Below are positions 12,155-43,759 of a stretch of 64,000 bases of DNA, in pieces. Position numbers and translations under genes: made by a program. Position 1 is the first letter of the stretch; each line of letters begins with the position of its first letter. Source of the stretch: a virus; the IMG/VR virus record IMGVR_UViG_3300021093_000045, positions 1 through 64,000 of that record. One strand, 5' to 3'. The notes beneath the pieces are model-generated. The model was not told the DNA's origin, made no database searches, and saw nothing but the letters and a program-made list of their open reading frames with translations.

Positions 12155-14014
12155 ATGAGTGAATATTATATATCATACGAACAGAAGGTGCCTTGGAATG
12201 GTAGTGTTTTTAATGCAAATGAATATAGAAAAGCCATTAATGCGTTTTATTCAAAGGTTGATCTTGTAAACCCAAATGTAAAAACTGCCGATGATGCGCC
12301 GATGCCTACTATATCTGTGCGAGATTTATCTCCTGATGCAAAATTTCCAAACGAATTAGGATTTGGATTAACTGGTAAATTTTCCGATACAAAAAAAGAT
12401 GAATTAACCGGTTTACCCAGAGTATTTGTAACATTGAGTGGTGATATAAAAGTCCCAAGACCAACAACTTCGGGAAAAACATTGAGCGTAACAATAGCCT
12501 CAGCAAATAAAAGCTTAGTAGCAGATGGTACAACACCCGCAATTGCTTTTAATAAAGCTTTTAAACAATTAAGAGAATCTATTTTACAAACATTAGCCGA
12601 TCAGATAGGTGGAAGAGGTATTAAGATAGAAAGACAAGATGCGTTCACTGACCCAGAACCAGCACTAGTTGGTCCTCCAACACAAACCATATCTGGTGTG
12701 ACAAATAAAGCTCCTGTCGTTGATAATCCAAATATTAAACTTCCAACACAAGAAGTTAAAGGATTGGATGCAAATGCCGCTCAACAAGCTGCTTCCAAAG
12801 CAACATCACAAGTGCAAAGTTCTGCTACATCCGCAGTTAGTTCTGTAGGCAATCTCACATCTCAAGCACAAAGTGCGGTCAGCCAAGCACAGGGTTCTGT
12901 AGGCAATCTCACATCTCAATCACAAAGTGCGGTCAGCCAAGCACAGGGTTCTGTAGGCAATCTCACATCTCAAGCACAAAGTGCGGTTGGAAATGTACAA
13001 CAAAGTGCCGGTGGTATACTAAACAATTTATCTTCTGGTGTCAAAGGCGCTTTAGGAGGTGGTGCTTTAGGTGCTGGTATCGGTGCATTAGCCGGTGGTG
13101 GTAAGGCTGCTTTAATTGGAGCTGGAGCTGGTGTTTTGGCTGGGGGTATAGCTGGAAGTGTGGTTGATAAACTTAATCCTAAAGGTATAAAAGTAGATGG
13201 TTTGGGTAAGGATTGGTCTCCGGATAAATTTAGTCCTGAATCGATTGCGGGTAATGATAAGATTATTGATGCAAAGACCGGAGTTATTAGTTCCACTTCA
13301 AAACTAGCAAAATCAGTTGGGGGTTTAATTGGTAAAGCTCAAGGTGCTGCCAGTGGTGTATTAGGTGCAGCTGGTAGTGTAGTTGGTGGAGTAACTGGTG
13401 CAGCAGGTAGTGTGGTTGGTGGCGTAACGGGTGCAGCGGGTAGTGTGGTAGGTGGGGTAACCGGTGCAGTTGGCGGTGCATTAAGTAAAATCCCATTAGT
13501 TGGTGGCGTAGCAGGCGGTTTAGTAAGTGGTGTTGGTGGCGCAGCAGGTAGTCTAGTAAGTGGTGTTGGTGGCGCAGCAGGTGGTTTAGTTAGTGGTGTT
13601 GGTGGTGCAGCAGGTAATTTAGTTAGCGGTGTTGGTGGCGCACCAGATGTAGGTTCTATGGGTGGTTTAGTGGGTGGAGCTTTAGCCGGTGCTGGAGTTG
13701 GTGCCGGTATAGGAGGATTAGTGAGTGGAGCAAAAGGTGCTTTAATTGGAGGAGGTGCGGGTGGTGCTTTAGGAGCTGCAGCTGCTAAATTGTCAAGTAT
13801 TAAAAAGAACATGCCTAAACTTAAAATTCCCAAACCACCAAGTACTCCTAGAATTAAAACAATTAAAATACCAAGACCTGATAGTACCAAAGGTGCGGAA
13901 CAACTATTAAATTTATCAAAATCAAAATTGGGAGCTATCAAAACTAATGTAGGTTCACAGATAACCGCTAATATTGATACAAATAAATTGAACTCTTATG
14001 GTGGATTCGGATAA
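12155..14014 (+). CDS. Gly/Ala-rich repeat protein with glycine zippers (tape-measure/membrane-inserting candidate)
   Basis: 18-aa and 11-aa tandem repeats and two GALxGAGxG blocks; located in the baseplate module. Confidence 0.7.
   Translation: MSEYYISYEQKVPWNGSVFNANEYRKAINAFYSKVDLVNPNVKTADDAPMPTISVRDLSPDAKFPNELGFGLTGKFSDTKKDELTGLPRVFVTLSGDIKVPRPTTSGKTLSVTIASANKSLVADGTTPAIAFNKAFKQLRESILQTLADQIGGRGIKIERQDAFTDPEPALVGPPTQTISGVTNKAPVVDNPNIKLPTQEVKGLDANAAQQAASKATSQVQSSATSAVSSVGNLTSQAQSAVSQAQGSVGNLTSQSQSAVSQAQGSVGNLTSQAQSAVGNVQQSAGGILNNLSSGVKGALGGGALGAGIGALAGGGKAALIGAGAGVLAGGIAGSVVDKLNPKGIKVDGLGKDWSPDKFSPESIAGNDKIIDAKTGVISSTSKLAKSVGGLIGKAQGAASGVLGAAGSVVGGVTGAAGSVVGGVTGAAGSVVGGVTGAVGGALSKIPLVGGVAGGLVSGVGGAAGSLVSGVGGAAGGLVSGVGGAAGNLVSGVGGAPDVGSMGGLVGGALAGAGVGAGIGGLVSGAKGALIGGGAGGALGAAAAKLSSIKKNMPKLKIPKPPSTPRIKTIKIPRPDSTKGAEQLLNLSKSKLGAIKTNVGSQITANIDTNKLNSYGGFG
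12841..12988 (+). repeat. 54-bp tandem repeat, about 2.7 copies
   Basis: ttctgtaggcaatctcacatctcaa...gcacaggg at 12841, 12895 and 12949 (SVGNLTSQAQSAVSQAQG). Confidence 0.9.
13340..13642 (+). repeat. 33-bp/11-aa degenerate tandem repeats
   Basis: GAAGSVVGGVT and GAAGxLVSGVG units. Confidence 0.85.
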
Positions 14015-24450: not shown

Positions 24451-25548
24451 ATGATATTCAGTCAATTTACAAACGATGATATAGTAGCAGGTAGAATTAA
24501 CCAAGTCTCATCTGGTATGTTCGGAACAGGCGATTTACAAGTTAGTCAATCGCTATTTACTACATCATCAACACAAGGTCGTCAGTTAACTGGCTCGACA
24601 CCATACGATGTAAAAAATGGCCAGTATTATGTGGATGTTTATTATGACTCCGAACAATATTTTTCAGTTGCTTATGGAGATTATGCTAATAGTGGTAGTT
24701 CAAAATTCAGTTGGCCAGGCAATGCCGTCCCAGTATTAACTAACGAAACAAAAGTTATTTATACTCAATATAAGAATACACTATTACAACCAGGTGATTC
24801 ACTATTTAGTTTTGCATCTGGTAGCGTAGATAATCCAGTTGATAGTGAAGCAATTTTTGCTGTTAACTATTCGGCTGATAAGTTTAAAGATCAAATCGAT
24901 CCGGGTCAAATTCAATTTAATTTAAGTGGTGCAAATGGCGTTTATTCGTATATCGACGATTCACAAGTTGTAAATAAATCACTCGGCGTATATAATCTTA
25001 TTTCAGGATCAGTTATCAATGGCCTACCAACTCCTTATTTGAAAAATAATAGTCCTGTTTATGAAGGTATTGGGTTGTTTTATCCAACCAATGGTATTGT
25101 TATATTTAATGCATTAACACTACAAACAAGAGTTGGTGTAATCACAACATTTAATAGAACAATTGCTTCAGGTACAAATGAATATTCAACCCAAGTTCTG
25201 GGTAATTGGAGAGTTTGGACAAGAGACTTTTTTAAATCACTTAAAGGTACTAACAAATTAATGAGTGTAAGAAAGAGTGAATTTGTTCCATCATCAAACT
25301 ACTTCGTTCGTATTAAAAATAGACAATTTAACTATAGTAATAATCCAACATTTGTGTCTGATGGCACAGATGGACTTACCAAAGGTACTATTATTTATCA
25401 AGATTTAATAAATAATCCTCGTACATATATCACTTCGGTTGGACTATACAATGTAAACAATGAATTACTAGCAATTGGTAAGCTAAGTAAACCAACACAA
25501 AAATCATTTGATAATGAATTGTTGATTAAAGTAAGAATTGACTTTTAA
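24451..25548 (+). CDS. baseplate/tail-collar structural protein
   Basis: C-terminal YIT.VGLYN..NELLAIGKLSKP..K......IKVRIDF tail-collar-like domain. Confidence 0.75.
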   Translation: MIFSQFTNDDIVAGRINQVSSGMFGTGDLQVSQSLFTTSSTQGRQLTGSTPYDVKNGQYYVDVYYDSEQYFSVAYGDYANSGSSKFSWPGNAVPVLTNETKVIYTQYKNTLLQPGDSLFSFASGSVDNPVDSEAIFAVNYSADKFKDQIDPGQIQFNLSGANGVYSYIDDSQVVNKSLGVYNLISGSVINGLPTPYLKNNSPVYEGIGLFYPTNGIVIFNALTLQTRVGVITTFNRTIASGTNEYSTQVLGNWRVWTRDFFKSLKGTNKLMSVRKSEFVPSSNYFVRIKNRQFNYSNNPTFVSDGTDGLTKGTIIYQDLINNPRTYITSVGLYNVNNELLAIGKLSKPTQKSFDNELLIKVRIDF

Positions 25549-25578
25549 TTATCAATAAATCCTCCTATTTATATTGGG

Positions 25579-27189
25579 ATGATTAAATTTTTTAAAAACG
25601 AAGATATTCTTGTAACGGCATTTTCTATAGCATCTCCTAAGGTTGTTAACAATATCGTTACAAATTTAATTGCCGGCAACGATAGCGATGACAACTATTT
25701 TCCAATATCATTGTTAAATGATGAATGTGATTACAATGTTTCCGGTAGTTGTGCGACATCAGTAATTGACCAATCATATCTTGCTGAATCACAATATAGC
25801 GGTGTTATTCCAAATTTTGAAATTGGCAAGTACATAACAGCTAGTGCGGTTTTTTATCCAAAAGAAAGTCAGTTTTATAATGTTAAAACGAATCCAACAA
25901 ATTCCGTAGGCACTTATCAGGGTCAAGTTTATAATACAATCAAAAATATGTATTATAACTCTTATAACAATTCTTATAATATATTTGGATTTGATGGTTA
26001 TGATATTTCAAAAGCCAAATTAAATCTGACCAACGAATTTTCTTTATTTAGTTTTGCGCCGTCACAAGCGGGCGACAGAATAAAACCTGGATCAGTGCGA
26101 ATTAATAACCAAAGTGGTGATATAATTGGTTATATAGTTGATGATAGTAATTATAACCTATTCCTATCTGGAAGTTATTTCATAGACTATTTTAGTTTTA
26201 ATTCAAATAGTGATTTAATCACACAAGGATGTTGCGGTTTATCTAGCGTCATAAGTCCAACACCAGCTTATTGTAGTACGCCGGTACCTACACCAACACC
26301 AACGCCTACACCTACACCAACACCTACACCAACACCAACACCAACGCCTACACCAACACCAACGCCTACACCAACACCAACACCAACACCAACGCCAACA
26401 CCAACACCAACGCCTACACCAACACCAACACCAACACCAACGCCAACGCCTACACCAACACCAACGCCTACACCAACACCAACGCCTACACCAACACCAA
26501 CGCCTACACCTACACCAACGCCTACACCTACACCAACGCCTACACCTACACCAACGCCTACACCAACGCCTACACCAACGCCTACACCTACACCAACACC
26601 AACTCCTACACCAACGCCTACACCTACACCAACGCCTACACCTACACCAACGCCTACACCTACACCAACGCCAACACCAACACCAACTCCTACACCAAGT
26701 CCTGCTCCAACAAGTTTTGTTTTGGACATTCAATTAAGTAATGCAAATGGATGTTCCGATTCTTATATACAAACTACAATAAATCAATTTAATGGTGGGG
26801 ATGGTGCTGCATTAGCAGAAAATATTGGAACACAAGCTTCAACTCCTACTTATGGTACTTTATATACAGGTCTTGCAGTTTCATCGTTTAATGTGACATT
26901 TTTGGATAATTGCGTTAATGATGTATATAATGGAAATAATACTTTAGCCGTCGAAGTAGAAAGAAATTCTTGTCAGTGGGAAGCCTATGGAGATCCCGTT
27001 CAATATAGATGTAAAGGATCACCGGGAGCAGACCCATGTGAAGGATTATGTTGTACATTATATGAACCAGATGATGCTTTAAATCCTTTTAATTTAACTC
27101 TTTCCGCGTTAGCGTTTAAAATAAAATTGCTTTATAATGAGGATCCTTTAAGAGCTACTTATCCTGTGGTATTAACTGTTGGATATTAA
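25579..27189 (+). CDS. structural protein with (Pro-Thr)68 stalk and Cys-rich C-terminal domain
   Basis: N-terminal domain similar to 24451 (IKPGSV...IVDD), then a 136-aa PT tract and a Cys-rich tip. Confidence 0.85.
26287..26694 (+). repeat. 6-bp coding tandem repeat, 68 Pro-Thr dipeptides
   Basis: CC(A/T)AC(A/G/T) units with synonymous variation only. Confidence 0.97.
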
Positions 27190-27303
27190 TTGTTTTTAAT
27201 ATGATTACAATATGATGCAAATCCAGCAACTACTCATTTCGTTATCGAATTAAATGATAGTTAATTAAAAATAAAATTTATTGAGTTTTAATACTATAAT
27301 TTT

Positions 27304-28020
27304 ATGATACCAAAAATAATACATCAAACTGCACCTTATAAAAAAAGTCAATGGCATCCTGTTTGGAATATTTGTCTACCTACTTGGCAATTACACTTTC
27401 CTGATTTTGAACATAAAATCTGGACTGATTCTGATATAGATGAATTTGTTAAAACTAACTACCCACAGTATGTTGAATTATATAATTCATATCCACATAT
27501 TTTGTGTAAAATAGATTTTACTAGATTTTTAATATTACACAAATATGGCGGTATATTTTCTGATATGGATATATTTGTTGTTAAAAATTTTTATGATGCT
27601 TTACAACCAAATGGTATAAGTATACTAGAATCTAACTACTTAAAAGACGGATTACAAAGTTGTTTCATGGTATCAGATAAAAATAATGACACCTGGATTG
27701 ATGTAGTAAATGCTGCAAAAATTATTGCCGAAACTTCTACGTTAATAAACGATTTAAAACAAGCTCTTGCTGATCCTAAAAAATTCTCATCTGTAGGTAA
27801 TATTATATTAAGTCTTACGTCGGATATTTTTTTAACAAAAATATCTGAGAAGTTTCATAAATTACCAAAATCTGTTTTTAATCCTGTACATAACACGGTT
27901 GAATGGTCTTCAAAAGATGTTTATATAAAACATGTTATGACTGGCAAATGGGCAGATGGATGTGATGCTGGTAAAATTGAATCGTATATACATTTAAAAG
28001 ATAGAATAAAAGTTTTATGA
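27304..28020 (+). CDS. glycosyltransferase, GT32/Och1-like DXD family
   Basis: IPKIIHQT, WTD..I..F, DF.RF.ILHKYGGIFSDMD. Confidence 0.92.
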   Translation: MIPKIIHQTAPYKKSQWHPVWNICLPTWQLHFPDFEHKIWTDSDIDEFVKTNYPQYVELYNSYPHILCKIDFTRFLILHKYGGIFSDMDIFVVKNFYDALQPNGISILESNYLKDGLQSCFMVSDKNNDTWIDVVNAAKIIAETSTLINDLKQALADPKKFSSVGNIILSLTSDIFLTKISEKFHKLPKSVFNPVHNTVEWSSKDVYIKHVMTGKWADGCDAGKIESYIHLKDRIKVL

Positions 28021-28565
28021 ATATAAATACAGAAATGTCTGTTGATTTTTTTAATGAATATGGGTTTGCTTATTTAGAAAACATCATTTCAGAAGATTTG
28101 TGTAATAAATTTACAAGTATAATGTTAGATTTAAAAGAAAAGAATAAATTAGCATTTGAAAATATATCAAATGCTGATATGTATAAAAATTCGTATGGTC
28201 AGGGTGGAATTGCCGAGATGGAAGAGTTTCTTCAAAAATTGACACTTCCGATATCCGATGTACTGAGTTTGAAAATTAAACCATCAAATACATACGCTAG
28301 AATATATTATAATGGAAGTACATTGAAGCCACATGTTGATAGACCAGGATTAGACTATACAATGTCGGTCACCTTGTTTTCCAATTTAAAAAGTGAATGG
28401 CCATTGATTGCGGTTGATAAATTGGGAAAAGAGATTAGATGTAACATTAATCGTAAAGATGGATTGTTGATACATGGTACTGAAATGAATCATTGGAGGG
28501 AAGATTTAACCTGTGCGGACGATGAGTATGTAATTCAAATGTTTTTACACTGGAGTAGAATTTAA
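28017..28565 (+). CDS. 2OG-Fe(II) oxygenase superfamily protein
   Basis: YARIY..G..L..HVDRP (HxD), HWR, Q.FLHW. Confidence 0.88.
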   Translation: MNINTEMSVDFFNEYGFAYLENIISEDLCNKFTSIMLDLKEKNKLAFENISNADMYKNSYGQGGIAEMEEFLQKLTLPISDVLSLKIKPSNTYARIYYNGSTLKPHVDRPGLDYTMSVTLFSNLKSEWPLIAVDKLGKEIRCNINRKDGLLIHGTEMNHWREDLTCADDEYVIQMFLHWSRI

Positions 28566-29386
28566 CGTTCTCTAAACCACTTTGTTATTATAATTTTTTC
28601 TCCTTTTATTACAGGCATACCACAATGAAGCGAGTTGAAGTTTCCTGTATTATCCGATAGAATGTTTTTCCAAATTAAAGCGTCTCCTTTAGATGGAAAG
28701 AATTCTTTATCAATCTTTGGAAATTTAGTACTACCACCTTCTTCCACATCGTTTAAATAAATCATAAATGTCCATGTGCGTTGACCTTTTGATTCTACAT
28801 ATTTCTTATTATACTCTTCGTTGAGATGAAAGTAATCTGTGTGGGGTTTGAATTCTTGACCAACAAGATATTTTTGTCCCTGCGGAACTTCACCTAGTTC
28901 TAGTGGTATTTGTATAAAGTCATGAATTTTTTGGTTTATATCACCAAAAAGTTTGTTGTTCAACATCATGTTGCATGTTGAACTTGTTCTTTCATATTTG
29001 TTCGCATTTGGATTTGTGATGGTCGATGGTGCAAAATTGCTACCCAGTTCCTCTATTAAAGAATCACATTCTTGATTGGCTAAGAAGTTATAAACTCGGT
29101 ATATTTCTAAGTTGTTGGTTTCTATTCTAAATACCTTTGGGTTATCAGCCAAAGGTTTATATAGTATTCCCAAATCTACATCTTTGTCCATATTTAATGT
29201 GGACTGAGTAAGTCTACGATCTGTGATTTTTTTATTTTGGGGATATACATCCAGTTCTTTTTGGATTAGATCATATTGAAATCCGTGGTTCAATAAAACA
29301 TTGAAAACATCTTCCTTTGTCACTCCATTTGAAATAACGGTCCATATCCAAGCTTTCCAAGATGCATCAAATTGATCTAATATCAT
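28562..29386 (-). CDS. prolyl 4-hydroxylase (start probably 29386)
   Basis: NFL...ECD.LI, RTS, Q..KY..GQEF.PHTDYF (HxD), QR.WTFMIYLNDVEEGG.T.F, SLHCGMPV.KGEK...TKWFRER. Confidence 0.92.
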   Translation of the reverse strand: MILDQFDASWKAWIWTVISNGVTKEDVFNVLLNHGFQYDLIQKELDVYPQNKKITDRRLTQSTLNMDKDVDLGILYKPLADNPKVFRIETNNLEIYRVYNFLANQECDSLIEELGSNFAPSTITNPNANKYERTSSTCNMMLNNKLFGDINQKIHDFIQIPLELGEVPQGQKYLVGQEFKPHTDYFHLNEEYNKKYVESKGQRTWTFMIYLNDVEEGGSTKFPKIDKEFFPSKGDALIWKNILSDNTGNFNSLHCGMPVIKGEKIIITKWFRER

Positions 29387-29520
29387 ATGTATAGTATATT
29401 TAAAAATATATATAGATAAAACCAATTATAGTTGGTTACCTTAAATATTTATATTACGATGTCGAGTTTAGTATTAATTTGTGATCTAAAAGAGAACATT
29501 CTAGAGAATGTCTTTAATTT

Positions 29521-32004
29521 ATGAGTCTTACGAACATATATAACGAAAGATATGGAACATCCGTGGCTACAAATGATAACTATGTAGCTGTTGGAAATCC
29601 GCCTACCCATGATTATAATCTAGCCGAAGGATTTTATAGACATGGTGAGGTAGTTTTAATTAAAAAAAATAACTTCAATTCAAACTATTCAGCCTCATTT
29701 AGTTTTACTAAAAGTTTGCATGGCAAAACTATCAATAGTACTAGATTTGGTGAATCTATAGATTTATCGGACTATTTTTTGGCAATAGGTAATAGCGTAC
29801 TTTCTGCTAGCGTAACATCTGGTAATTGTAATTGTGTTACGATAACAGGATCTTATGTTGACGTTTATATAATTGATTCAAACTATAATATTATAAATGG
29901 TAGTTTAATAAACGACGAAACATGTGCAGTTGAAAATTTAAATACTCAAATATACACTAATACTCCATTTATTACATTAACGGGATCAAATTCGTTTGGT
30001 ACGTCCGTTAGTATAACAAACAAATACTTAGCGGTTGGGTCTCCTAAAGAAAACAATGGCCGTGGTAAGGTTTATGTATACCAATTTTCAGCTTCTAAAT
30101 ATAAGTTGGAAGCGACTCTAACTCCAAATGTTACTCAATTTCCATCTCAATATGGATTTGGATATTCAGTATCTATTGACAAAAAATACCAAGACAAAAT
30201 TGTGATTGGAAGTAATCAGTTATCACATTCAAATGTATATTTGTATCAATCATCATCTGGTGGTTGGGGATTAAAACAATATTTCTCACAAGTTACCGGA
30301 TCACTTTCTGTTGAGAATAGTTTATTTAATTGGTACCCAGTATCTCTCAAAAATTCAAATTATGGTCGCTCAGTTTCAATACACGACAGAATAATTGTTG
30401 TTGGAGCTCCTAATGATTTAGTTTATTATGAATATTCTGGATCTACAATTCAAAGACAAAGAGGTGCTTTTTATGTATATTCAACTGATCTATGTAATTC
30501 AACGCCATCAGGTAGTTATTTGTTATTAACAAAACTATATGGTGATGAAAATACATTTAAAGATAACTTTTTGGGTTATTCAGTATCCACGAATAATAAC
30601 AATATAATTGTTGGATCACCAAAAAGGTATTTTCCATTTTCATCAGTGTTCTTATCATCATCTTTAAATTTTTACAAAAATATAGCTAATGAAAATGACT
30701 TTGGTGCATCAACGTTTTTAGGACAAGTTTTATACTACCAAGTTACAGGATCCAAGATTATAAAGATGACTAGTTATCCTATCTCAAAAAGAAAAGAAAG
30801 TGAAAATAGTCCATTCTCTGCATATGGAGCTGCTGTTTCTATATATGGAAATAATATAGCAGTTGGTTCTCCTATACCATTACTAAGAGATTATTATTTG
30901 GATGTTCCATATATAACCGAATCCGGTAGTATATCAGACCCAAATTATGTACTTACATCATCTTATTATGAAGAAGGATGTGATGTAACTTCAAGTGTTG
31001 TATATTTTCAAATAGAACAATCAGTTACAACATGCGCTGGAAATCCCATATATGTAGCATTGTGTGAGGAAACCACACCCTATACCACTATTGAAGGTAA
31101 TGCTTATGTTTATAATTTGAGCGATCTTCAAACTAATTTTAACGTAGGTAATGTATTTTATAATAATAATAGAGTTGTTATAAATAACACTGGTAGTGGT
31201 TTAAATTTGATTGGTAGAAATGCAATTGATACAAACCTGCCTTTTATCTACATGGATTACGAAAGTTTGGTTCAATTGCATGAAAAACAATATATTTGTA
31301 CGTTAGAACCTGGAGAATTTAATATTTCGACTAATCCAACTGCTATAACTGGAAGTCTTATAAATTATGGAATTGTTGATAAAGTTGCCTTTGATTTTAA
31401 TAATTTAGATTTAATCCTTAGATATATAAACTACAATATTACATCGCCCAGAAGTGAAGAGTGGTGGACGAATATGGTGTCGGGGGATACCGAAATTAGT
31501 ATATTGTCATTTTATTCAGCTTCATATGATATAAACAATCCATTTACAATTGGTGCGGGCATATTACCAGGATCAAAATATCAAGAAAATAGATTAACAT
31601 ATCCGTTGAAGTGTGTTTTGGCAACTAAGAATTTTGATGTTAATGGCGATGGTAAAGTTGATTTCCAAGATGGTATTGCAATATGGAAATACTTTATTAA
31701 TAATCTAACTTATCAGAATTACAAGAATTATATAAATCCAACTAGTAGGAGAAATACATACGATGGTTTAATTAAGTTTTTAGATACCAATACTGGTAAA
31801 GGTAATAAGAATTATATTAAACCAGAATTTTTTGAGTTCTCATATAGTTCTTCAATAGATCCAACAGGATCTTATTTGGCTCCTTATATAACACAAGTAG
31901 GTTTGTATAATGGTGCTGATTTAGTAGCTATTGCTAAACTCGCTCAGCCAATTAAAAATTCTGGACAATTACCTATTAATATTGCTGTTAAATGGGATAC
32001 TTAA
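29521..32004 (+). CDS. baseplate-family protein with FG-GAP beta-propeller, dockerin/EF-hand-like loop and tail-collar-like C-terminus
   Basis: Repeated (F/Y)G.SV.I....(V/I)G(A/S)P blades; DVNGDGKVDFQD; PYITQVGLYN...LVAIAKLAQPI. Confidence 0.85.
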   Translation: MSLTNIYNERYGTSVATNDNYVAVGNPPTHDYNLAEGFYRHGEVVLIKKNNFNSNYSASFSFTKSLHGKTINSTRFGESIDLSDYFLAIGNSVLSASVTSGNCNCVTITGSYVDVYIIDSNYNIINGSLINDETCAVENLNTQIYTNTPFITLTGSNSFGTSVSITNKYLAVGSPKENNGRGKVYVYQFSASKYKLEATLTPNVTQFPSQYGFGYSVSIDKKYQDKIVIGSNQLSHSNVYLYQSSSGGWGLKQYFSQVTGSLSVENSLFNWYPVSLKNSNYGRSVSIHDRIIVVGAPNDLVYYEYSGSTIQRQRGAFYVYSTDLCNSTPSGSYLLLTKLYGDENTFKDNFLGYSVSTNNNNIIVGSPKRYFPFSSVFLSSSLNFYKNIANENDFGASTFLGQVLYYQVTGSKIIKMTSYPISKRKESENSPFSAYGAAVSIYGNNIAVGSPIPLLRDYYLDVPYITESGSISDPNYVLTSSYYEEGCDVTSSVVYFQIEQSVTTCAGNPIYVALCEETTPYTTIEGNAYVYNLSDLQTNFNVGNVFYNNNRVVINNTGSGLNLIGRNAIDTNLPFIYMDYESLVQLHEKQYICTLEPGEFNISTNPTAITGSLINYGIVDKVAFDFNNLDLILRYINYNITSPRSEEWWTNMVSGDTEISILSFYSASYDINNPFTIGAGILPGSKYQENRLTYPLKCVLATKNFDVNGDGKVDFQDGIAIWKYFINNLTYQNYKNYINPTSRRNTYDGLIKFLDTNTGKGNKNYIKPEFFEFSYSSSIDPTGSYLAPYITQVGLYNGADLVAIAKLAQPIKNSGQLPINIAVKWDT

Positions 32005-37015: not shown

Positions 37016-37981
37016 ATGGAAATATCAGATTCTCTCATTATTGGTGATGTAAACTTAAGTTTCACAATTAACCAAAATGGAGAGTGTCATTTTCATAAAA
37101 ATTTTGATACATCTGTTAATTTTTTTGTCATACTTAAAAGTATTGATACAAATTTAACTAACAACTTGCTTCATGTTCAAATGGGCCCCAATCATAATGT
37201 ATGGAGTTATAGTTGGCCCATAAATATAACAAAGTTGGAATGTCATCCCGGTATCATCATGGAGTTTTTTAATGAAAACTCTAAACCAATTTGTACCAAA
37301 TACTATAGATTTAAAAATACTGGATTAAATATAAAGTTGAAATCTAATGATATTGATATAACGTATCCGCCATATCAAACATTTTTCTACGATGAATCTT
37401 TTAAAAAACTCTGTAATGTTAAAGATGGTGATGTAGTCTACGATTTGGGTGCTAACATAGGCGCTTTTTCTTTAATGTGTTCAAACTATGATACTAAAAA
37501 CATATATGCATTCGAACCAAACCCATTGATATATGATTATCTAAAGTATAATTGTGATGTATATGGTAAAAATGTATCTACATATAAAAAAGCCATTTAT
37601 AAAACATTTGAATCACTAAATTTTGGTAATCTAGAGGGTGGATTAAGTCAAGGATCAGTTGCATGTTCTATCATAAATAAAGATAAAAATTTATGTTCTG
37701 TTGACGGCATTCATCTTGAAGTGTTTGCTAAAGTTAATAATCTCCAGTACCCAACATATCTTAAAGTGGATATTGAAGGCGCTGAGTATGACTTTTTTGA
37801 ATCAACGTCCGATGATTTTATTAAAAATTGTCATACTATCTTTTTAGAATTTCATAATAAAGACGAAAGACTCAACATGTTAATATCTAGATTGACCAAT
37901 TTAAATTATAAAATGTATTTTTTGACCGACAAAGATTATGTATTGTCTCAGAATATGGGTACTATATTCTTCATTAAGTGA
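37016..37981 (+). CDS. FkbM-family SAM-dependent methyltransferase
   Basis: VVYDLGANIGAFS, YAFEPNP, LKVDIEGAE, LEFH. Confidence 0.93.
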   Translation: MEISDSLIIGDVNLSFTINQNGECHFHKNFDTSVNFFVILKSIDTNLTNNLLHVQMGPNHNVWSYSWPINITKLECHPGIIMEFFNENSKPICTKYYRFKNTGLNIKLKSNDIDITYPPYQTFFYDESFKKLCNVKDGDVVYDLGANIGAFSLMCSNYDTKNIYAFEPNPLIYDYLKYNCDVYGKNVSTYKKAIYKTFESLNFGNLEGGLSQGSVACSIINKDKNLCSVDGIHLEVFAKVNNLQYPTYLKVDIEGAEYDFFESTSDDFIKNCHTIFLEFHNKDERLNMLISRLTNLNYKMYFLTDKDYVLSQNMGTIFFIK

Positions 37982-39975
37982 ATATGAAAAAATTGTTATT
38001 TATCGCTCCACATTTGTCCACCGGTGGTCTTCCTCAATTTCTTTTAAAGAAGATAAAGTGTCTGATTGATATATACGACGTATATTGTATTGAATATGCG
38101 GACGTAACAGGTGGAAAGTTTATCGTACAACGAGACCAGATTAAAAATATATGTAAAAACAAGTTTTATACTTTATATGATAACAAGGAAGATATCATAA
38201 ATTTGATAAGTAAAATAAAACCGAATATTATTCACTTTGAAGAAATGCCTGAGTATTTTATGGATCTATCTATATCATCCAGAATTTATGATAAAGATCG
38301 AAACTATTTTATAGTAGAAACATCACACGATAGTAGTTTTAATTCAGATAATAAGAGAGTTTTGCCTGATCAATTTTTGTTTGTAAGTAACTTCCAGAAA
38401 CAAAATGTTAAAAAATTACCTGTTAAATCGGATGTTATTGAATATCCAGTTGAAGTAAGAACTCGTAAGAATCGTAATGATGGATTAAAAGAATTGGGTT
38501 TAGATCCTAGTAAAAAACATGTTATGCATGTAGGTCTATTCACACCAAGAAAAAATCAAAAAGAGTTTATCGAATATGCACGTGCGATGGAAAATGAAAA
38601 TGTTCAGTTTCATTGTATTGGTAATATGGCCGATAACTTTAGATCATATTGGGAACCATTATTAAATGATTTACCTAAAAATGTAAAGGTTTGGGGTGAA
38701 CGAAAAGACGTACATAATTTTTATAGTTGTATGGATTTATTTTTGTTTACAAGTCGTGGTCATGCAAACGATAAAGAAACCGCGCCAATTGTAATTAAAG
38801 AAGCTATTTCATATAATATACCAAGTTTGTTTTATAATCTACCAGTCTATTTGAATAGATATTCATGTTATGATAATATTTCTTATCTTGATGAATCTAG
38901 TTTTAATAATAATGTAGATTTGATTCGTAATAAATTGATAGGCGTTAAAACAAGTGAACGAGTTGATGATAAAGAATTTATTGCGGTTATTTCTACACAT
39001 CCAAATTATAAGATAGTAGAAGATACTACAATAAAAGCCATTCAACAGATTCAGAAGGCAGGGTATAAAGTAATATTAACATCACATTATCCAGTCAGTC
39101 AAGAGTTACAATCGTTGGTGGATTATTGTATATATGATAAAAACAATCCGTCTATAATACACAATTTTTATGCGAATTGGTCGTTGGTTAATCAATATCA
39201 CGATATAAGAGTACACTTACCATCATGTGGTGCGAACATATATCATGGGTTGGGTGTCGCATTAAATTATTACAATGGTATATCACTCGCAAATAAATTG
39301 GGATACAAGAATGTATTTGCTTTTAACTACGATGTGGTTGTAAACGAAAAAGATTTTAATAAATTAGATTTTATTAAGAATTTATTGAAGACCAAGAAAG
39401 GTTTCTTTTTCTATGATAAAGCACTTGAAGGAGATACAATCAAAACGGTATTTCATGCTATTAACACGGATTTTTATCTGGATCATTTTGAGTATTTCAC
39501 ACCTATATCATATGAGATGTTTGTTAAAGAGAAGAATATATCAAATGGTTTAGAACAATTCTATTATAACAGAGTGTTGGATCATAAAAAAGATCTATAC
39601 ATAGATACTAACAACAACGAAGAGTCATTCTTTAGTAATAGTGAAATCAATATGTTTTCTATGTGTGAATATTTGTCAGTTTTGCCAATGACTAATACTT
39701 CTAAGTTTGTTTGTTTGAGTAGTTTCAATAACAAAATAGATAAAAAATACAATAGAATATCTGTTTACAAGAATGATGTGTTGATACGAGAATCACAAAA
39801 TGAAATACAAACCAAAGGTTGGTGGCATATTGAGGTTGATTTTGAACCAAACAACGTGTATAAAGTAGTAAACGCTTTGTACGACTCTGAAAACAAAAAC
39901 ATGGTAAAAGAAGTAGTACAGGTGTTTTCTAAACTAGAGGATTTGCAGAATAACGGACATTTCACAGCTAAATAA
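37978..39975 (+). CDS. GT4-like (GT-B) glycosyltransferase with additional C-terminal domain
   Basis: PHLSTGG, VG.F..RKNQ, G.RKDV..FY...DLFLFTS...ETAPIVIKEA (E-x7-E). Confidence 0.88.
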   Translation: MNMKKLLFIAPHLSTGGLPQFLLKKIKCLIDIYDVYCIEYADVTGGKFIVQRDQIKNICKNKFYTLYDNKEDIINLISKIKPNIIHFEEMPEYFMDLSISSRIYDKDRNYFIVETSHDSSFNSDNKRVLPDQFLFVSNFQKQNVKKLPVKSDVIEYPVEVRTRKNRNDGLKELGLDPSKKHVMHVGLFTPRKNQKEFIEYARAMENENVQFHCIGNMADNFRSYWEPLLNDLPKNVKVWGERKDVHNFYSCMDLFLFTSRGHANDKETAPIVIKEAISYNIPSLFYNLPVYLNRYSCYDNISYLDESSFNNNVDLIRNKLIGVKTSERVDDKEFIAVISTHPNYKIVEDTTIKAIQQIQKAGYKVILTSHYPVSQELQSLVDYCIYDKNNPSIIHNFYANWSLVNQYHDIRVHLPSCGANIYHGLGVALNYYNGISLANKLGYKNVFAFNYDVVVNEKDFNKLDFIKNLLKTKKGFFFYDKALEGDTIKTVFHAINTDFYLDHFEYFTPISYEMFVKEKNISNGLEQFYYNRVLDHKKDLYIDTNNNEESFFSNSEINMFSMCEYLSVLPMTNTSKFVCLSSFNNKIDKKYNRISVYKNDVLIRESQNEIQTKGWWHIEVDFEPNNVYKVVNALYDSENKNMVKEVVQVFSKLEDLQNNGHFTAK

Positions 39976-39977
39976 TC

Positions 39978-42122
39978 ATGAAAGTAATACAAGTACATTT
40001 GGGTTTATTGCCTATTCCTCCTAATGGTTGGGGTGCTATAGAAAAAATAATTTGGGATTATTATCTTCAATTAAACAAAAAAGGATTGGAATGTGAGATC
40101 AAATTTTTGGACGATATAAAGTATAATGACAATACTATTGTTCACGTACATGTCGCTAATTTAGCAAATGAATGTCATAAACGTGGTATTCCATACATCT
40201 TTACTTTACACGATCATCATGCTTATCTTTATGGTAAAGATTCTCCAGTATTTAAAGAGAATTTAAAGGCTATAGAAAATAGTATTATATCAACATGTCC
40301 TGCAAAATATCTAGTTGACTACTTTGGTAGTAAAAAATTAAGATATTTTTCGCATGCTGTTAATACAGATACTTTTAAATACAAAAACTATAATAGAGAA
40401 AACTATAAACTATTATGTGTAGCTAATAATGGTTATGCGAACAATCAATCAGCCGATAGAAAAGGTTTTAAGTTTGCAATACAGGCGGCTAAAGAATTAA
40501 ACCTACCTATCACAATCGCCGGTCCAAGTAACAACAGGAAATTTTTTGAAACATTGGAGTCGTCATTAAACAATTATGAAAAGCTGACAAAAGTATTTGA
40601 TCTGGATGAAAATGGATTGATAGAGTTATATAACAACCATGATGTTTTTATACACGCATCAGAACTGGAAGCCGGTCATCCAAATCTAACTTTGTTGGAA
40701 GCTATGGCTTGTGGTCTTCCTGTAGTAGGAACATTTGAAGACAAAAAATACGAAGGTATGATTGTGGTTGATAGAAATACCAAACAAATCAAAGATGCTA
40801 TTGGAAAAGTTATTAGCAATTATGAACGCTATCATACAGAGGCATTAAAAGCTGCAAAAAATAATTCTTATGATAAGAGATCAGATCAGTTAATAGAACT
40901 ATACGATGAATATATTGATAAGTTATTTGCAAATAAATTTGTCAACATATACGACACATTGGATAAGAATACTAATCAAGCAACCATTACAGCTAATATA
41001 AACTATTCATTCAATGATAATGCGTGTATAGAAATAACAAATTGTGTTAATAAAGATGAATCGTTTGATGTGGTATTTAAAAACAGGGTAACCGATCAAG
41101 TTCTATATAACACAACTCTCAAAGATGGTTGGTGGGGAAGATGTGACTTTGCATATTATATTCCATTTAATATTTCAGTAAAAAGCAATTTAACAGGCAA
41201 GACTTTACTAGATTACGATTTAGATTTGACAGATAGAAATGTTTTGATTCAATTTGATACACCAGCGTTGGGTGATCAGTTGTGTTGGATGCCTATAACT
41301 GAACAATTCAGAGTAAAACATAAGTGTAATTTGTACGTAAAGATTCCAAATCTACGTCCATTTTTCGAAAAGAAATATAAGAATATCAAATTTTTGAATA
41401 TGGATGAATCCGGTCCAGAAATGTTTGCTACATATAAACCAGGCTGGTATGTGGATGATAAAACCATCAATACCAATAGATGTAAGACTGATATAAGAAA
41501 AGAGCCTCTACAAAAGATAGTTTCCGATTATCTAGGTTTGTCATATGTTCCAGAAAGACCTTTGTTAGATTTTCCATTAAAGCCTTCGACATTTACAAAA
41601 CCTACCGTGACTATTGCTACACAAAGTACATCACAATGTAAGTATTGGAATCACAAAGGAGGTTGGGAAATTGTTATCGAATACTTGAAGACTAAAGGAT
41701 TTGATGTTGTTTGTATAGATAAAAATTATAGTTGGGGTAATGGCGACAATATGAATGTTATACCTCAAAATGCTATTGATTTAACAGGTGATCATCCATT
41801 AAGTGATCGTATGAATCAAATATATCACAGCTCATTTTTTATAGGTTTACCATCGGGATTATCGTGGTTGTCATGGGCATTAGAAAAGCCAACCATATTG
41901 ATTAGTGGATTTTCATATGATTATACAGAGTTTGAAACTCCATATCGTGTGCAAAATAAAAATGTATGTACTGGTTGTTGGAATGATAATTATTTTGATA
42001 GGGGTAATTGGATGTGGTGTCCGAAGTCCGAGAAAAAGGAAATATTTGAATGTACAAAATCTATCACCCCACAAATGGTTATAGAAACAATTGATCGTCT
42101 AATTAAAGATAATAATTTATGA
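39978..42122 (+). CDS. GT4 glycosyltransferase fused to Aah/TibC-family autotransporter O-heptosyltransferase
   Basis: N-terminal IPP.GWGAIE, RKG, EAGHPNLTLLEAMACGLPV; C-terminal LGD...W, ATQST.QCKYWN, FIGLPSGLSWL.WA, ISGF...EF.TPYRV, CTGC...CP...FECTKSI four-Cys iron finger. Confidence 0.88.
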   Translation: MKVIQVHLGLLPIPPNGWGAIEKIIWDYYLQLNKKGLECEIKFLDDIKYNDNTIVHVHVANLANECHKRGIPYIFTLHDHHAYLYGKDSPVFKENLKAIENSIISTCPAKYLVDYFGSKKLRYFSHAVNTDTFKYKNYNRENYKLLCVANNGYANNQSADRKGFKFAIQAAKELNLPITIAGPSNNRKFFETLESSLNNYEKLTKVFDLDENGLIELYNNHDVFIHASELEAGHPNLTLLEAMACGLPVVGTFEDKKYEGMIVVDRNTKQIKDAIGKVISNYERYHTEALKAAKNNSYDKRSDQLIELYDEYIDKLFANKFVNIYDTLDKNTNQATITANINYSFNDNACIEITNCVNKDESFDVVFKNRVTDQVLYNTTLKDGWWGRCDFAYYIPFNISVKSNLTGKTLLDYDLDLTDRNVLIQFDTPALGDQLCWMPITEQFRVKHKCNLYVKIPNLRPFFEKKYKNIKFLNMDESGPEMFATYKPGWYVDDKTINTNRCKTDIRKEPLQKIVSDYLGLSYVPERPLLDFPLKPSTFTKPTVTIATQSTSQCKYWNHKGGWEIVIEYLKTKGFDVVCIDKNYSWGNGDNMNVIPQNAIDLTGDHPLSDRMNQIYHSSFFIGLPSGLSWLSWALEKPTILISGFSYDYTEFETPYRVQNKNVCTGCWNDNYFDRGNWMWCPKSEKKEIFECTKSITPQMVIETIDRLIKDNNL

Positions 42123-43759
42123 AAATAGTAGGTAGCTACATAGGACCACATGATGTTGGCGTTGCTTTAATTGAGAATAATCAAATATTAGCTTGTTATT
42201 CCGAAGAAAGATTCACAAGAGTTAAATCAGCACACGCAGGTTGTATATTCCCAATCAATAGTCTAGATGCTTTACAAAAAAACTTTAATTTTGATATTAA
42301 CGATCCAAACGTAAAATTTGCTTGTGCTAAACCTATAGCTACAGAACATAAATTTTTGCGTGATATTGTAAATAACAGAGAACTTAGAACTATTGGACAC
42401 GAATATGCACACGCATGCGGTGCTTATTATACATCCGGCTTTAACGAAAATACATTAATCGTTGCATATGATGGTGGCGATTGTGGCGATGATGATTGGA
42501 CAATATTGAATAAAGAAAATTATGATCGTTATAATCCGTGGAAGGCAAAAAACGATAGTCAAACTGCATGTTATATTGTTAAAAATGGTAAACTAATTGA
42601 AATTGGTGAACGTGTTAAAAATGGAAGCGTTGCTAATCTTTGGTTTTTGATGTGTTTGATATTTGGTCTTACTCCTATTAAAGACGAGGGTAAGATTATG
42701 GGTCTTGCTGCGCAGGGAAAATTCAATCAAAAGATATTTGATACATTGAATTTCTTTGTGCAAAACGATATGTTAAAAGCATCGTGTATGATTCAGGAAA
42801 AGTACACCACATTGTTGAAAACACTATCAAAAGAAGATGCTTTGAATCTAAAAAGAGATTTAGCATACAATCTACAATATATCAGCGAAATTACTATTCT
42901 TAATTTTATAAAGAAATATTACGATGAGTATGGACCATTTGATAATCTATGTTTAGCAGGTGGTATTTTTGCAAATGTTAAAATCAACCAAAAGATAAAC
43001 GAATTATTACCATTTAAAGAGATGTGGGTATATCCTGCTATGAATGATGAAGGATTATCTCTTGGATCAGCAATTGCATATGCTGTAGAATTGGGTGTGT
43101 TTACAAATAGAAGAATTGATAATGTATTTCTTGGTAATAAAACATCATATCAAGACACACAAATTGATATTGATAATTTCCAATCCAATTTTGGAAAGAC
43201 ACTAGCATCCGAAGATTTAGATTTTAATAAAATTGGAGACTATCTGGTTGATGGTAAAGTTATTGGTATATTTGATGGTGCTACAGAATATGGTCCAAGA
43301 GCTTTAGGTTCACGTTCTATTGTTGTAGAGCCAACCAGAAAAGAAACTCATGCATATATAAATGAAAGATTAAAACGTGACGATATTATGCCATTCGCAC
43401 CTATAGTCATGGAAGAATACATTGAGGATGTATGCTATGTATATAAATCTAAAAGAACTGCAGAGTTTATGACTTTATGTTATACCGTAAAAGAACAATG
43501 GGCCAATAAAATACCGGCGGTTATAAATTTTTATGATAATACAGCTAGACCACAAGTTGTAAATAAATATAGACATTCTCTATTTCATAAGATACTTTCC
43601 GCTTATAATCATCGATCTAAAATACCCGTTTTAATGAATACAAGTTTTAATGGTCATGGAGAGCCTATTATCAATTCACCAAATCACGCACTAAAACATT
43701 TGGCTGAAGGTACTGTAGATCTTTTAATTATTAACAATAAAATTTATAAATTAGTATGA
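42119..43759 (+). CDS. carbamoyltransferase (NodU/CmcH/TobZ family)
   Basis: HD, EERF.RVK, HE.AHA, EGKIMGLA, AGG.FANVKIN, PAM.DEG.SLG, EYGPRALGSRSI, PFAP, TARPQ, NTSFN.HGEPI. Confidence 0.95.
   Translation: MKIVGSYIGPHDVGVALIENNQILACYSEERFTRVKSAHAGCIFPINSLDALQKNFNFDINDPNVKFACAKPIATEHKFLRDIVNNRELRTIGHEYAHACGAYYTSGFNENTLIVAYDGGDCGDDDWTILNKENYDRYNPWKAKNDSQTACYIVKNGKLIEIGERVKNGSVANLWFLMCLIFGLTPIKDEGKIMGLAAQGKFNQKIFDTLNFFVQNDMLKASCMIQEKYTTLLKTLSKEDALNLKRDLAYNLQYISEITILNFIKKYYDEYGPFDNLCLAGGIFANVKINQKINELLPFKEMWVYPAMNDEGLSLGSAIAYAVELGVFTNRRIDNVFLGNKTSYQDTQIDIDNFQSNFGKTLASEDLDFNKIGDYLVDGKVIGIFDGATEYGPRALGSRSIVVEPTRKETHAYINERLKRDDIMPFAPIVMEEYIEDVCYVYKSKRTAEFMTLCYTVKEQWANKIPAVINFYDNTARPQVVNKYRHSLFHKILSAYNHRSKIPVLMNTSFNGHGEPIINSPNHALKHLAEGTVDLLIINNKIYKLV

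Follow-up and report, generated by a model that had tools for sequence, protein, structure and literature searches.

A candidate proline-hydroxylation and glycosylation cassette beside a Pro-Thr repeat protein in a freshwater T4-like phage

The DNA analysed here (the window) is the first 64 kb of the 78.8-kb IMG/VR virus record IMGVR_UViG_3300021093_000045, for which CheckV completeness is ~27%. Between two conserved genes of its tail region lies a cassette of four genes that encode a protein with a long Pro-Thr repeat (the PT protein), a GT32-type glycosyltransferase, a 182-aa 2-oxoglutarate (2OG)/Fe(II) oxygenase (ox182) and a prolyl 4-hydroxylase (P4H). Comparison with related loci makes it probable that the cassette is a self-contained protein-tailoring module, which modifies the linker of the phage's own fibre. 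A preliminary description of the same DNA had already proposed that substrate and enzymes belong together, and the relatives lend this support: we read the genes as one module because loci of the lineage have either both repeat and enzymes or neither, because the transferase slot has been refilled by unrelated families including one that resembles hydroxyproline O-arabinosyltransferase (HPAT), because the P4H and ox182 domains are joined in one polypeptide in many other phages, and because a Pro-rich gene, a hydroxylase gene and an HPAT-like gene follow one another in this order in diverse tailed phages.

In the mechanism that we propose, a freshwater T4-like jumbo phage would have acquired the module between two conserved genes of its tail region. 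There an ancestral small structural gene, which we call 'n' (~210 aa), would have gained a strictly alternating Pro-Thr linker of 136 residues and, behind it, an end domain that contains Cys. P4H and ox182 would hydroxylate the linker prolines in the host cytoplasm late in infection, and GT32 would then add a sugar, most likely to the hydroxyprolines (Hyp), with Thr as a possible acceptor too. This would yield a glycosylated polyproline-II rod resembling extensin, ~40 nm long if fully extended (136 residues × 0.31 nm), with which the particle would display an exchangeable C-terminal domain. What the phage would gain is stiffness, resistance to proteases, masking or binding.

Co-occurrence of repeat and enzymes in related phages

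Eighty viral contigs were retrieved with the conserved upstream flank gene that forms the left border of the slot (24451..25548, + strand, 365 aa; homologues at 35-84% identity), and each was scored from this gene to the FG-GAP repeat protein gene that forms the right border (29521..32004, + strand, 827 aa; PF14312, E 4e-24), or to the end of the locus. The usual order is a large protein, a 212-aa gene, the 365-aa gene, 'n', the FG-GAP gene, a small gene, RuvC and primase, and the flank order (L-3-4-n) is constant across contigs. In ~70 relatives 'n' is a separate or whole gene of ~210 aa that directly precedes the FG-GAP gene. Neither a P/T/S-rich repeat nor a recognised glyco-enzyme was found in 75 of the 80 contigs, both were found in five (L349, which is the contig of L006, and L326, L363, L364 and L383), and one without the other in none; the loci with both number eight once the window, L157 and L005 are added. 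The cargo differs between them. In L326 'n' carries a TP(S/V)-rich extension, after which come a GT60 enzyme (PF11397, E 8e-125) and an FkbM/HtrL protein; in L363 and L364 a poly-Thr extension precedes a GT2, a GT25, a GT32-like gene and a second GT2; and in L383 the extension is again poly-Thr, with GT2-type genes behind it. Neither of two hydroxylase profiles detected a hydroxylase with the poly-Thr (L363, L383) or TP(S/V) (L326) repeats, and hydroxylases were detected by these profiles only beside strictly alternating-Pro linkers (PT, PV, PSPV). The enzyme set thus appears to match the chemistry of the repeat.

Since 'n' and the FG-GAP gene are already separate in relatives that lack the cassette, the cassette is an insertion between two genes and not the result of a gene split. 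The same arrangement speaks against a split-paralogue origin, for which the comparison of the N-terminal domain of the PT protein with the 365-aa gene was also not significant (E 0.33). The 365-aa and FG-GAP proteins have in common a 39-aa C-terminal module (46% identity, E 6e-5), which may be a common attachment or assembly element.

The metagenome contig L157 keeps the whole cassette. Its flanking structural and replication genes are 91-98% identical to those of the window, and its three enzymes, with GT32 at the equivalent place, are more diverged (GT32 77%, ox182 73%, P4H 86%). Its linker is mostly Pro-Val (P63, V44, T18). In L005 and L006 the gene order is that of the window (P4H 53% and ox182 65% identical). 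The linkers are PV/PT in L157, PT in L005 and PSPV in L006, and Pro stands at every second place in 93-97% of positions in these relatives; the sole constant of the close-relative linkers is Pro at every second position, not Thr.

The transferase slot of L005 and L006 holds a 273-aa HPAT-like protein, which matches PF23452 with 31 bits (cut-off 23.9) over profile positions 57-248 of 307. Across this HPAT-like family PF23452 matches 17 of 31 members (best E 5e-12), and D106 and D108 of a DxD motif are invariant. Sequence similarity between the GT32 of the window and the HPAT-like protein was not found, no HPAT family match was found in the window's own record, and a search for a solved-structure relative of the HPAT-like protein found none. 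In the short contig L158 (P4H 71% identical), the slot beside the ox182/P4H pair holds an O-fucosyltransferase (O-FucT; PF10250, E 1.6e-18). Three unrelated transferase families (GT32, HPAT-like and O-FucT) therefore adjoin one conserved oxygenase pair. These contigs also carry a conserved gene of 277-278 aa with a GGDSGN motif (L157 12141-12977, L005 13206-14039, L158 2388-3128), located after a Pro-repeat protein whose C-terminus reads ...NLIQTL or ...NLISTL; it had no Pfam or PDB match, and might encode a processing or assembly factor for the Pro-repeat protein.

Beyond the lineage, a search with an HPAT-like alignment returned 75 viral loci in 34 clusters at 90% identity; alignment queries were needed, as a scan with a single sequence had reached no contigs beyond those of its origin. 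In 28 of the 34 clusters the HPAT-like gene has a P4H or ox182-type gene within three genes, mostly directly upstream, and a Pro-rich gene directly flanks the block in 21, against 9.6 expected (simulated P ~5e-6). For comparison, 79 viral GT32 loci (938 kb) taken as a control contain only 6 Pro-rich ORFs (open reading frames). About 44% of the residues in the repeats at these loci with an HPAT-like gene are Pro, which alternates with Thr, Val, Ala or Ser, and the ~400-aa 'P4H' found there is a fusion of P4H and ox182-like domains. The ox182-type gene stands alone ahead of the HPAT-like gene in L098-L111, which suggests that an ox182-type enzyme can supply hydroxyproline by itself. Some cassettes include sugar-nucleotide enzymes, either an NAD epimerase/dehydratase or a DegT aminotransferase with a GNAT acetyltransferase. 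The surroundings are structural modules of podovirus-like and siphovirus-like phages (with virion structural PHROG families in L127, and with the cassette placed after the tape measure in L086), and the order Pro-rich gene, hydroxylase, HPAT-like gene is recurrent across podo-, sipho- and myovirus-like modules. None of 50,697 GenBank phage records holds an HPAT-like gene; among 185,579 species genomes it was found on three short contigs of metagenome-assembled genomes (MAGs), and further HPAT-like proteins occur in Uroviricota clusters of the ESM Atlas, so that the family appears to be almost virus-only. Two of the three MAG contigs are labelled Planctomycetaceae, which is too weak for a host call. 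It is, in our estimate, an evenly poised proposition that tailed phages of lake and sea run a plant-like proline hydroxylation and Hyp glycosylation on their own fibre linkers in the bacterial cytoplasm, with interchangeable transferases (GT32, HPAT-like, O-FucT, GT60) matched to the chemistry of the repeat.

The repeat protein and the three enzymes

The PT protein (25579-27189) has 536 residues. Its N-terminal domain (aa 1-236; 25579..26286, + strand) belongs to the 'n' family, with 89% identity in L157 and 35% in L006, and had no Pfam or PDB match. The linker follows (aa 237-372, 136 residues; 26287..26694, + strand), and the 68 uninterrupted PT dipeptides reported in the preliminary description were recovered as an exact count. 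That description had further read the synonymous-only variation of the run as selection on the peptide. All codon variation is indeed synonymous (ACA 47, ACG 19, ACT 2, CCA 40, CCT 28); part of the pattern is explained by unit copying instead, because Tandem Repeats Finder resolves higher-order units of 18 and 12 nt and the copied unit already contains mixed codons. Short-read contigs of four lake-water runs match both flanks of the run and end at 26278 and 26703; as they stop at both repeat edges, the count of 68 comes from the IMG/VR assembly alone.

The Cys-rich end noted earlier is present as well: the C-terminal domain (26695..27189, + strand, 164 aa) contains 7 Cys, with 5 in the 236 aa of the N-terminal domain, and is 27% identical to the C-terminal domains of L005/L006; the adhesin role proposed for it in the preliminary description is a putative one. 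An AlphaFold2 model of it, built from 3 sequences, was unusable, with a predicted local distance difference test (pLDDT) score of 34. In L157, a close relative, the domain is swapped for an unrelated Cys-containing domain. Such swapping between close relatives, as in receptor-binding proteins, would suit a PT run that is only the passive, fast-evolving spacer of a receptor-binding protein, with the enzymes modifying other phage proteins, for instance the FG-GAP protein; PT/PV linkers are widespread as plain spacers, and the exact repeat length depends on one assembly. We nevertheless hold this explanation to be very improbable, since the FG-GAP gene occurs in ~60 relatives without any enzyme and the enzymes go together with the repeat and with no other gene feature.

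In L084, L112, L113, L126 and L127, Cys residues often stand on both sides of the Pro repeat, for example a single Cys immediately ahead of it and ...DYC behind it, and in the window CC and C lie ahead of the PT run (aa 218-236). These Cys may form disulfides after lysis.

The GT32-type DXD glycosyltransferase (27304..28020, + strand, 238 aa) matches PF04488 with E 1.3e-14 and 55.1 bits (cut-off 23). The N-terminal MIPKxIHQ, the DMD of aa 87-89 (D87-x-D89) and H210 are invariant in the family alignment, in agreement with the first assignment of this gene. In a PDB search it matched the Och1-type alpha-1,6-mannosyltransferase 9n3s (E 3e-7); the solved structures that match are mannosyltransferases and DXD regions of glycosylating toxins, none of them Hyp-specific. 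The family of the window's transferase is not one known to act on Hyp.

No Pfam family was matched by ox182 (28017..28565, + strand) at E up to 0.1, and only 3 of 50 relatives gave marginal matches to 2OG families. A full-library HMMER search returned 1358 relatives. In the alignment of 50, D108, H159 and R161 are invariant and H106 is found in at least 90%, so the HxD...H metal-ligand residues (H106, D108, H159) named in the preliminary description are conserved. The AlphaFold2 model has a pLDDT of 96, and its top Foldseek matches are the P. putida P4H (4iw3/4j25), the Dictyostelium prolyl hydroxylase (PHD) 6t8m and human PHD2 (template-modelling scores 0.72-0.78, E 1e-9 to 1e-7). Judged by this model, ox182 is a putative 2OG oxygenase of the prolyl-hydroxylase (PHD/PPHD) fold. 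It belongs to phrog_2954, which is labelled 'ferrochelatase', a label that the fold does not support. Genes of the ox182 family (25-32% identity) are annotated 'ferrochelatase' in 127 cultured marine phage records (cyanophages and pelagiphages); for the family as a whole this annotation is probably wrong.

P4H (28562..29386, - strand) is convergent to the ox182, GT32 and PT genes. All homologues begin at Met14 of the listed TTG open reading frame (ORF), and the gene is therefore 28562-29386, with 274 aa. It matches PF13640 (P4Hc; E 2.8e-15, 57.5 bits, cut-off 27), and H182, D184, H254 and K264, that is, the HxD...H set plus the 2OG-binding Lys described earlier, are invariant in 27 homologues. 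A P4H profile searched against the PDB matched the P4H of B. anthracis (3e-42), the human collagen P4H alpha-2 (C-P4H; 4e-33), Chlamydomonas P4H-1 (4e-31) and the P4H of PBCV-1 (3e-22), which makes the window's enzyme a putative peptidyl-prolyl 4-hydroxylase of the collagen/extensin type. A single-sequence P4H scan of viral contigs found nothing and alignment queries were needed; with these, ox182 was fused to or adjoined P4H in 20 of 31 viral P4H loci. A giant-virus MAG contig (L032, 9929-12862) has a 978-aa ORF with two tandem copies of a P4H + ox182-like domain pair. Within the window's own P4H gene, the segment 29104-29229 occurs as two variants that differ at 6 positions and have comparable depth in all four lake runs, which indicates microdiversity within the population.

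Opposing evidence, alternative acceptors and known systems

Several points weigh against the module reading. All of the support for an enzyme-substrate module is comparative, and from it we infer what the enzymes act on and by which chemistry, that the protein sits in the virion, and what the phage gains; the place of the PT protein in the virion is read from its gene position and an octamer shared with other genes (TATTTATA, see below) only. The lineage counts are phylogenetically non-independent and amount to ~five cassette types, not eight events, and the unlabelled slot genes of relatives were screened with the study's own query set only. As the record is ~27% of a genome, other substrates of the enzymes may exist elsewhere in it. 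In PBCV-1, the one virus with a P4H that has been studied, hydroxyproline was not detected in virions (PMC7019647). Taken as a whole, the P4H family shows no tie to Pro-rich genes, which lie within 10 kb in only 6 of the 31 viral P4H loci left after dereplication and in 5 of the 32 from metagenomes. Relatives of GT32 in 79 other viral loci are likewise mostly without Pro-rich genes and have a P4H nearby in four only. The co-occurrence that the preliminary description had looked to in related phages is thus seen in the lineage, and most loci of the P4H and GT32 families at large lack it. Finally, the GT32-like gene of L363 stands beside a poly-Thr repeat with no hydroxylase, and given this locus the GT32 of the window may act on Thr or extend a glycan.

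The scarcity of Pro-rich neighbours in most P4H loci would fit accessory enzymes directed at the host, for example enzymes that hydroxylate a translation factor or ribosomal protein and glycosylate some host molecule, which a recombination hotspot near a hypervariable fibre gene had brought to this place. The slot is clearly a hotspot with varied cargo, the best fold match of ox182 is a P. putida enzyme that hydroxylates EF-Tu, and P4H is listed among abundant viral 'auxiliary metabolic genes' whose viral use 'remains cryptic' (PMC9301287). Among the 80 lineage contigs, though, there is no recognised enzyme without a repeat and no repeat without enzymes, the type of enzyme tracks the type of repeat, and the order Pro-rich gene, hydroxylase, HPAT-like gene recurs in structural modules of unrelated podo-, sipho- and myovirus-like phages; we therefore rate a host-directed role as improbable.

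The other alternative concerns the acceptor. GT32 would here glycosylate Thr, in a mucin-type manner, while the oxygenases would only stiffen the rod or do an unrelated job, with no Hyp-linked sugar. The hints on the acceptor conflict, with a Pro-Val linker in L157 and a poly-Thr linker in L363. The 68 Thr of the window's repeat, the GT32-like gene that accompanies poly-Thr without a hydroxylase in L363/L364 and the lack of a Hyp-specific enzyme among the matching structures all speak for Thr. On the other side, the 77%-identical GT32 of L157 serves a mostly Pro-Val linker with just 18 Thr, the equivalent slot of L005/L006 is taken by an HPAT-like enzyme, related to plant enzymes that act on hydroxyproline, and cassettes with alternating Pro always keep hydroxylases and transferase together. 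This makes transfer to Thr alone unlikely, if less so than a host-directed role, and we continue to favour a module in which Hyp would be made and glycosylated.

The nearest known counterpart is the hydroxyproline-rich glycoprotein (HRGP) pathway of plants and green algae, in which P4H and then HPAT (CAZy GT95; PF23452) act on extensins. Both would use a Pro-rich repeat as substrate and a P4H of the Chlamydomonas P4H-1 family, and in L005/L006 and ~70 other viral contigs an HPAT-like transferase adjoins the hydroxylase. The differences are considerable: the plant and algal pathway runs in the endoplasmic reticulum and Golgi, whereas the phage cassette would run in the bacterial cytoplasm; the phage enzymes are short, and the N-terminal part of the plant proteins was not found in them; the phage repeats are PT, PV or PSPV and the plant ones Ser-Pro3-5; and the window has a GT32 in place of HPAT and adds a second, minimal oxygenase. 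In Dictyostelium and Toxoplasma, Skp1 is modified by the prolyl hydroxylase PhyA, the GT60 Gnt1 and then further transferases. Cytoplasmic hydroxylation of Pro followed by Hyp glycosylation is what we propose for the phage, the ox182 model resembles the Dictyostelium PHD 6t8m, and a GT60 (PF11397) occupies the slot of L326; Skp1, however, is modified at a single proline and not along a long repeat, and no hydroxylase was detected in L326. Mycobacteriophage virions are glycosylated by phage-encoded glycosyltransferases, and 'virion glycosylation' is a term used in the phage literature. A phage-encoded transferase that decorates the phage's own structural proteins is also proposed here; to our knowledge the mycobacteriophage system has other targets, involves no hydroxylase and no hydroxyproline, and is not built on a Pro-repeat linker.

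PBCV-1 has a P4H of the same family (PDB 5c5t) together with virus-encoded Pro-rich repeats. Its P4H has an unknown role (PMC7019647), for which the virus's own proline-rich repeat proteins have been proposed as substrates (Eriksson et al. 1999, as cited in PMC7019647). PBCV-1 has a eukaryotic algal host, and no linked glycosyltransferase or gene-order link is described for it; the phage, by contrast, presumably infects a bacterium, and its substrate gene lies contiguous with the hydroxylase and transferase genes and co-varies with them. Full-text literature searches found no report of hydroxyproline or Hyp-glycans in bacteriophages, in line with what the preliminary description had supposed.

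If the module is real, it would add proline hydroxylation followed by glycosylation, so far known from plants, algae and protists, to bacteriophage biology. It would give viral P4Hs, whose role is 'cryptic' (PMC9301287) and in PBCV-1 unknown (PMC7019647), a concrete and testable substrate. The wider proposition on tailed phages of lake and sea, if true, would explain both the P4H 'auxiliary metabolic genes' of viruses and the 'ferrochelatase' genes of cyanophages and pelagiphages, and no earlier case of glycoproteins with hydroxyproline-linked sugars would be known among prokaryotes and their viruses. The transferase slot would then be a fast-changing determinant of the phage surface that may bear on host range, protease resistance or escape from recognition. 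Compact, soluble hydroxylase/transferase pairs that suit the bacterial cytoplasm and have a defined repeat substrate would also be useful for making Hyp-glycosylated peptides in bacteria. What the window itself adds is a GT32 version of the cassette with separate, not fused, oxygenases, and a lineage in which insertion, transferase exchange and the matching of enzyme to repeat would be directly readable.

The phage and its other genes

Genes for a gp6-like baseplate wedge protein, tail sheath, large terminase, portal and major head protein are present in the window, and on their presence we assign the record as a fragment of a large T4-like myovirus, a freshwater jumbo phage. A sequencing-run search found near-verbatim copies of the stretch in 24 lake-water DNA metagenome runs of 2018, so the phage is recurrent in freshwater; no RNA run was among the holders listed in this search. 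Megablast of the cassette region against GenBank phages gave no match.

A scan of 25000-30000 for sigma-70 promoters and terminators gave background level only. The octamer TATTTATA lies at 25566..25573 (+ strand), 5 nt before the ATG of the PT gene. On the + strand it precedes seven genes in all (positions 1174, 7509, 10073, 25566, 48376, 54384 and 56967), and the other six starts (1187, 7520, 10085, 48388, 54397 and 56980) follow it by 3-5 nt; two of the genes so preceded sit between the portal and the major head protein. Its total count in the window is not above that of shuffles (24 vs 17). The 3-5 nt spacing leaves no room for a Shine-Dalgarno sequence. The octamer may mark late genes whose messages are leaderless or nearly so.

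At 54-943 the window carries four tRNA genes (Gly-tcc, Gln-ttg, Ala-tgc, Gly-gcc) and, after them, a 386-nt gene for a transfer-messenger RNA (tmRNA) with the tag peptide AEDNVISYDFSYDDVVAVAA; a tmRNA carried by a phage is unusual. Immediately ahead of the tail sheath gene is a second operon for glycan tailoring (37016-43759), which encodes an FkbM methyltransferase, a carbamoyltransferase and two GT4 proteins, of which one ends in a GT9 heptosyltransferase-like domain; its products might lengthen or decorate a glycan begun by the cassette. A 619-aa protein for which no PHROG family was matched (12155-14014) contains long Gly/Ala/Ser/Val repeats, with units such as GAAGSVVGGVTGAAGS, and its gene lies in a stretch of raised G+C (0.42 vs ~0.31).

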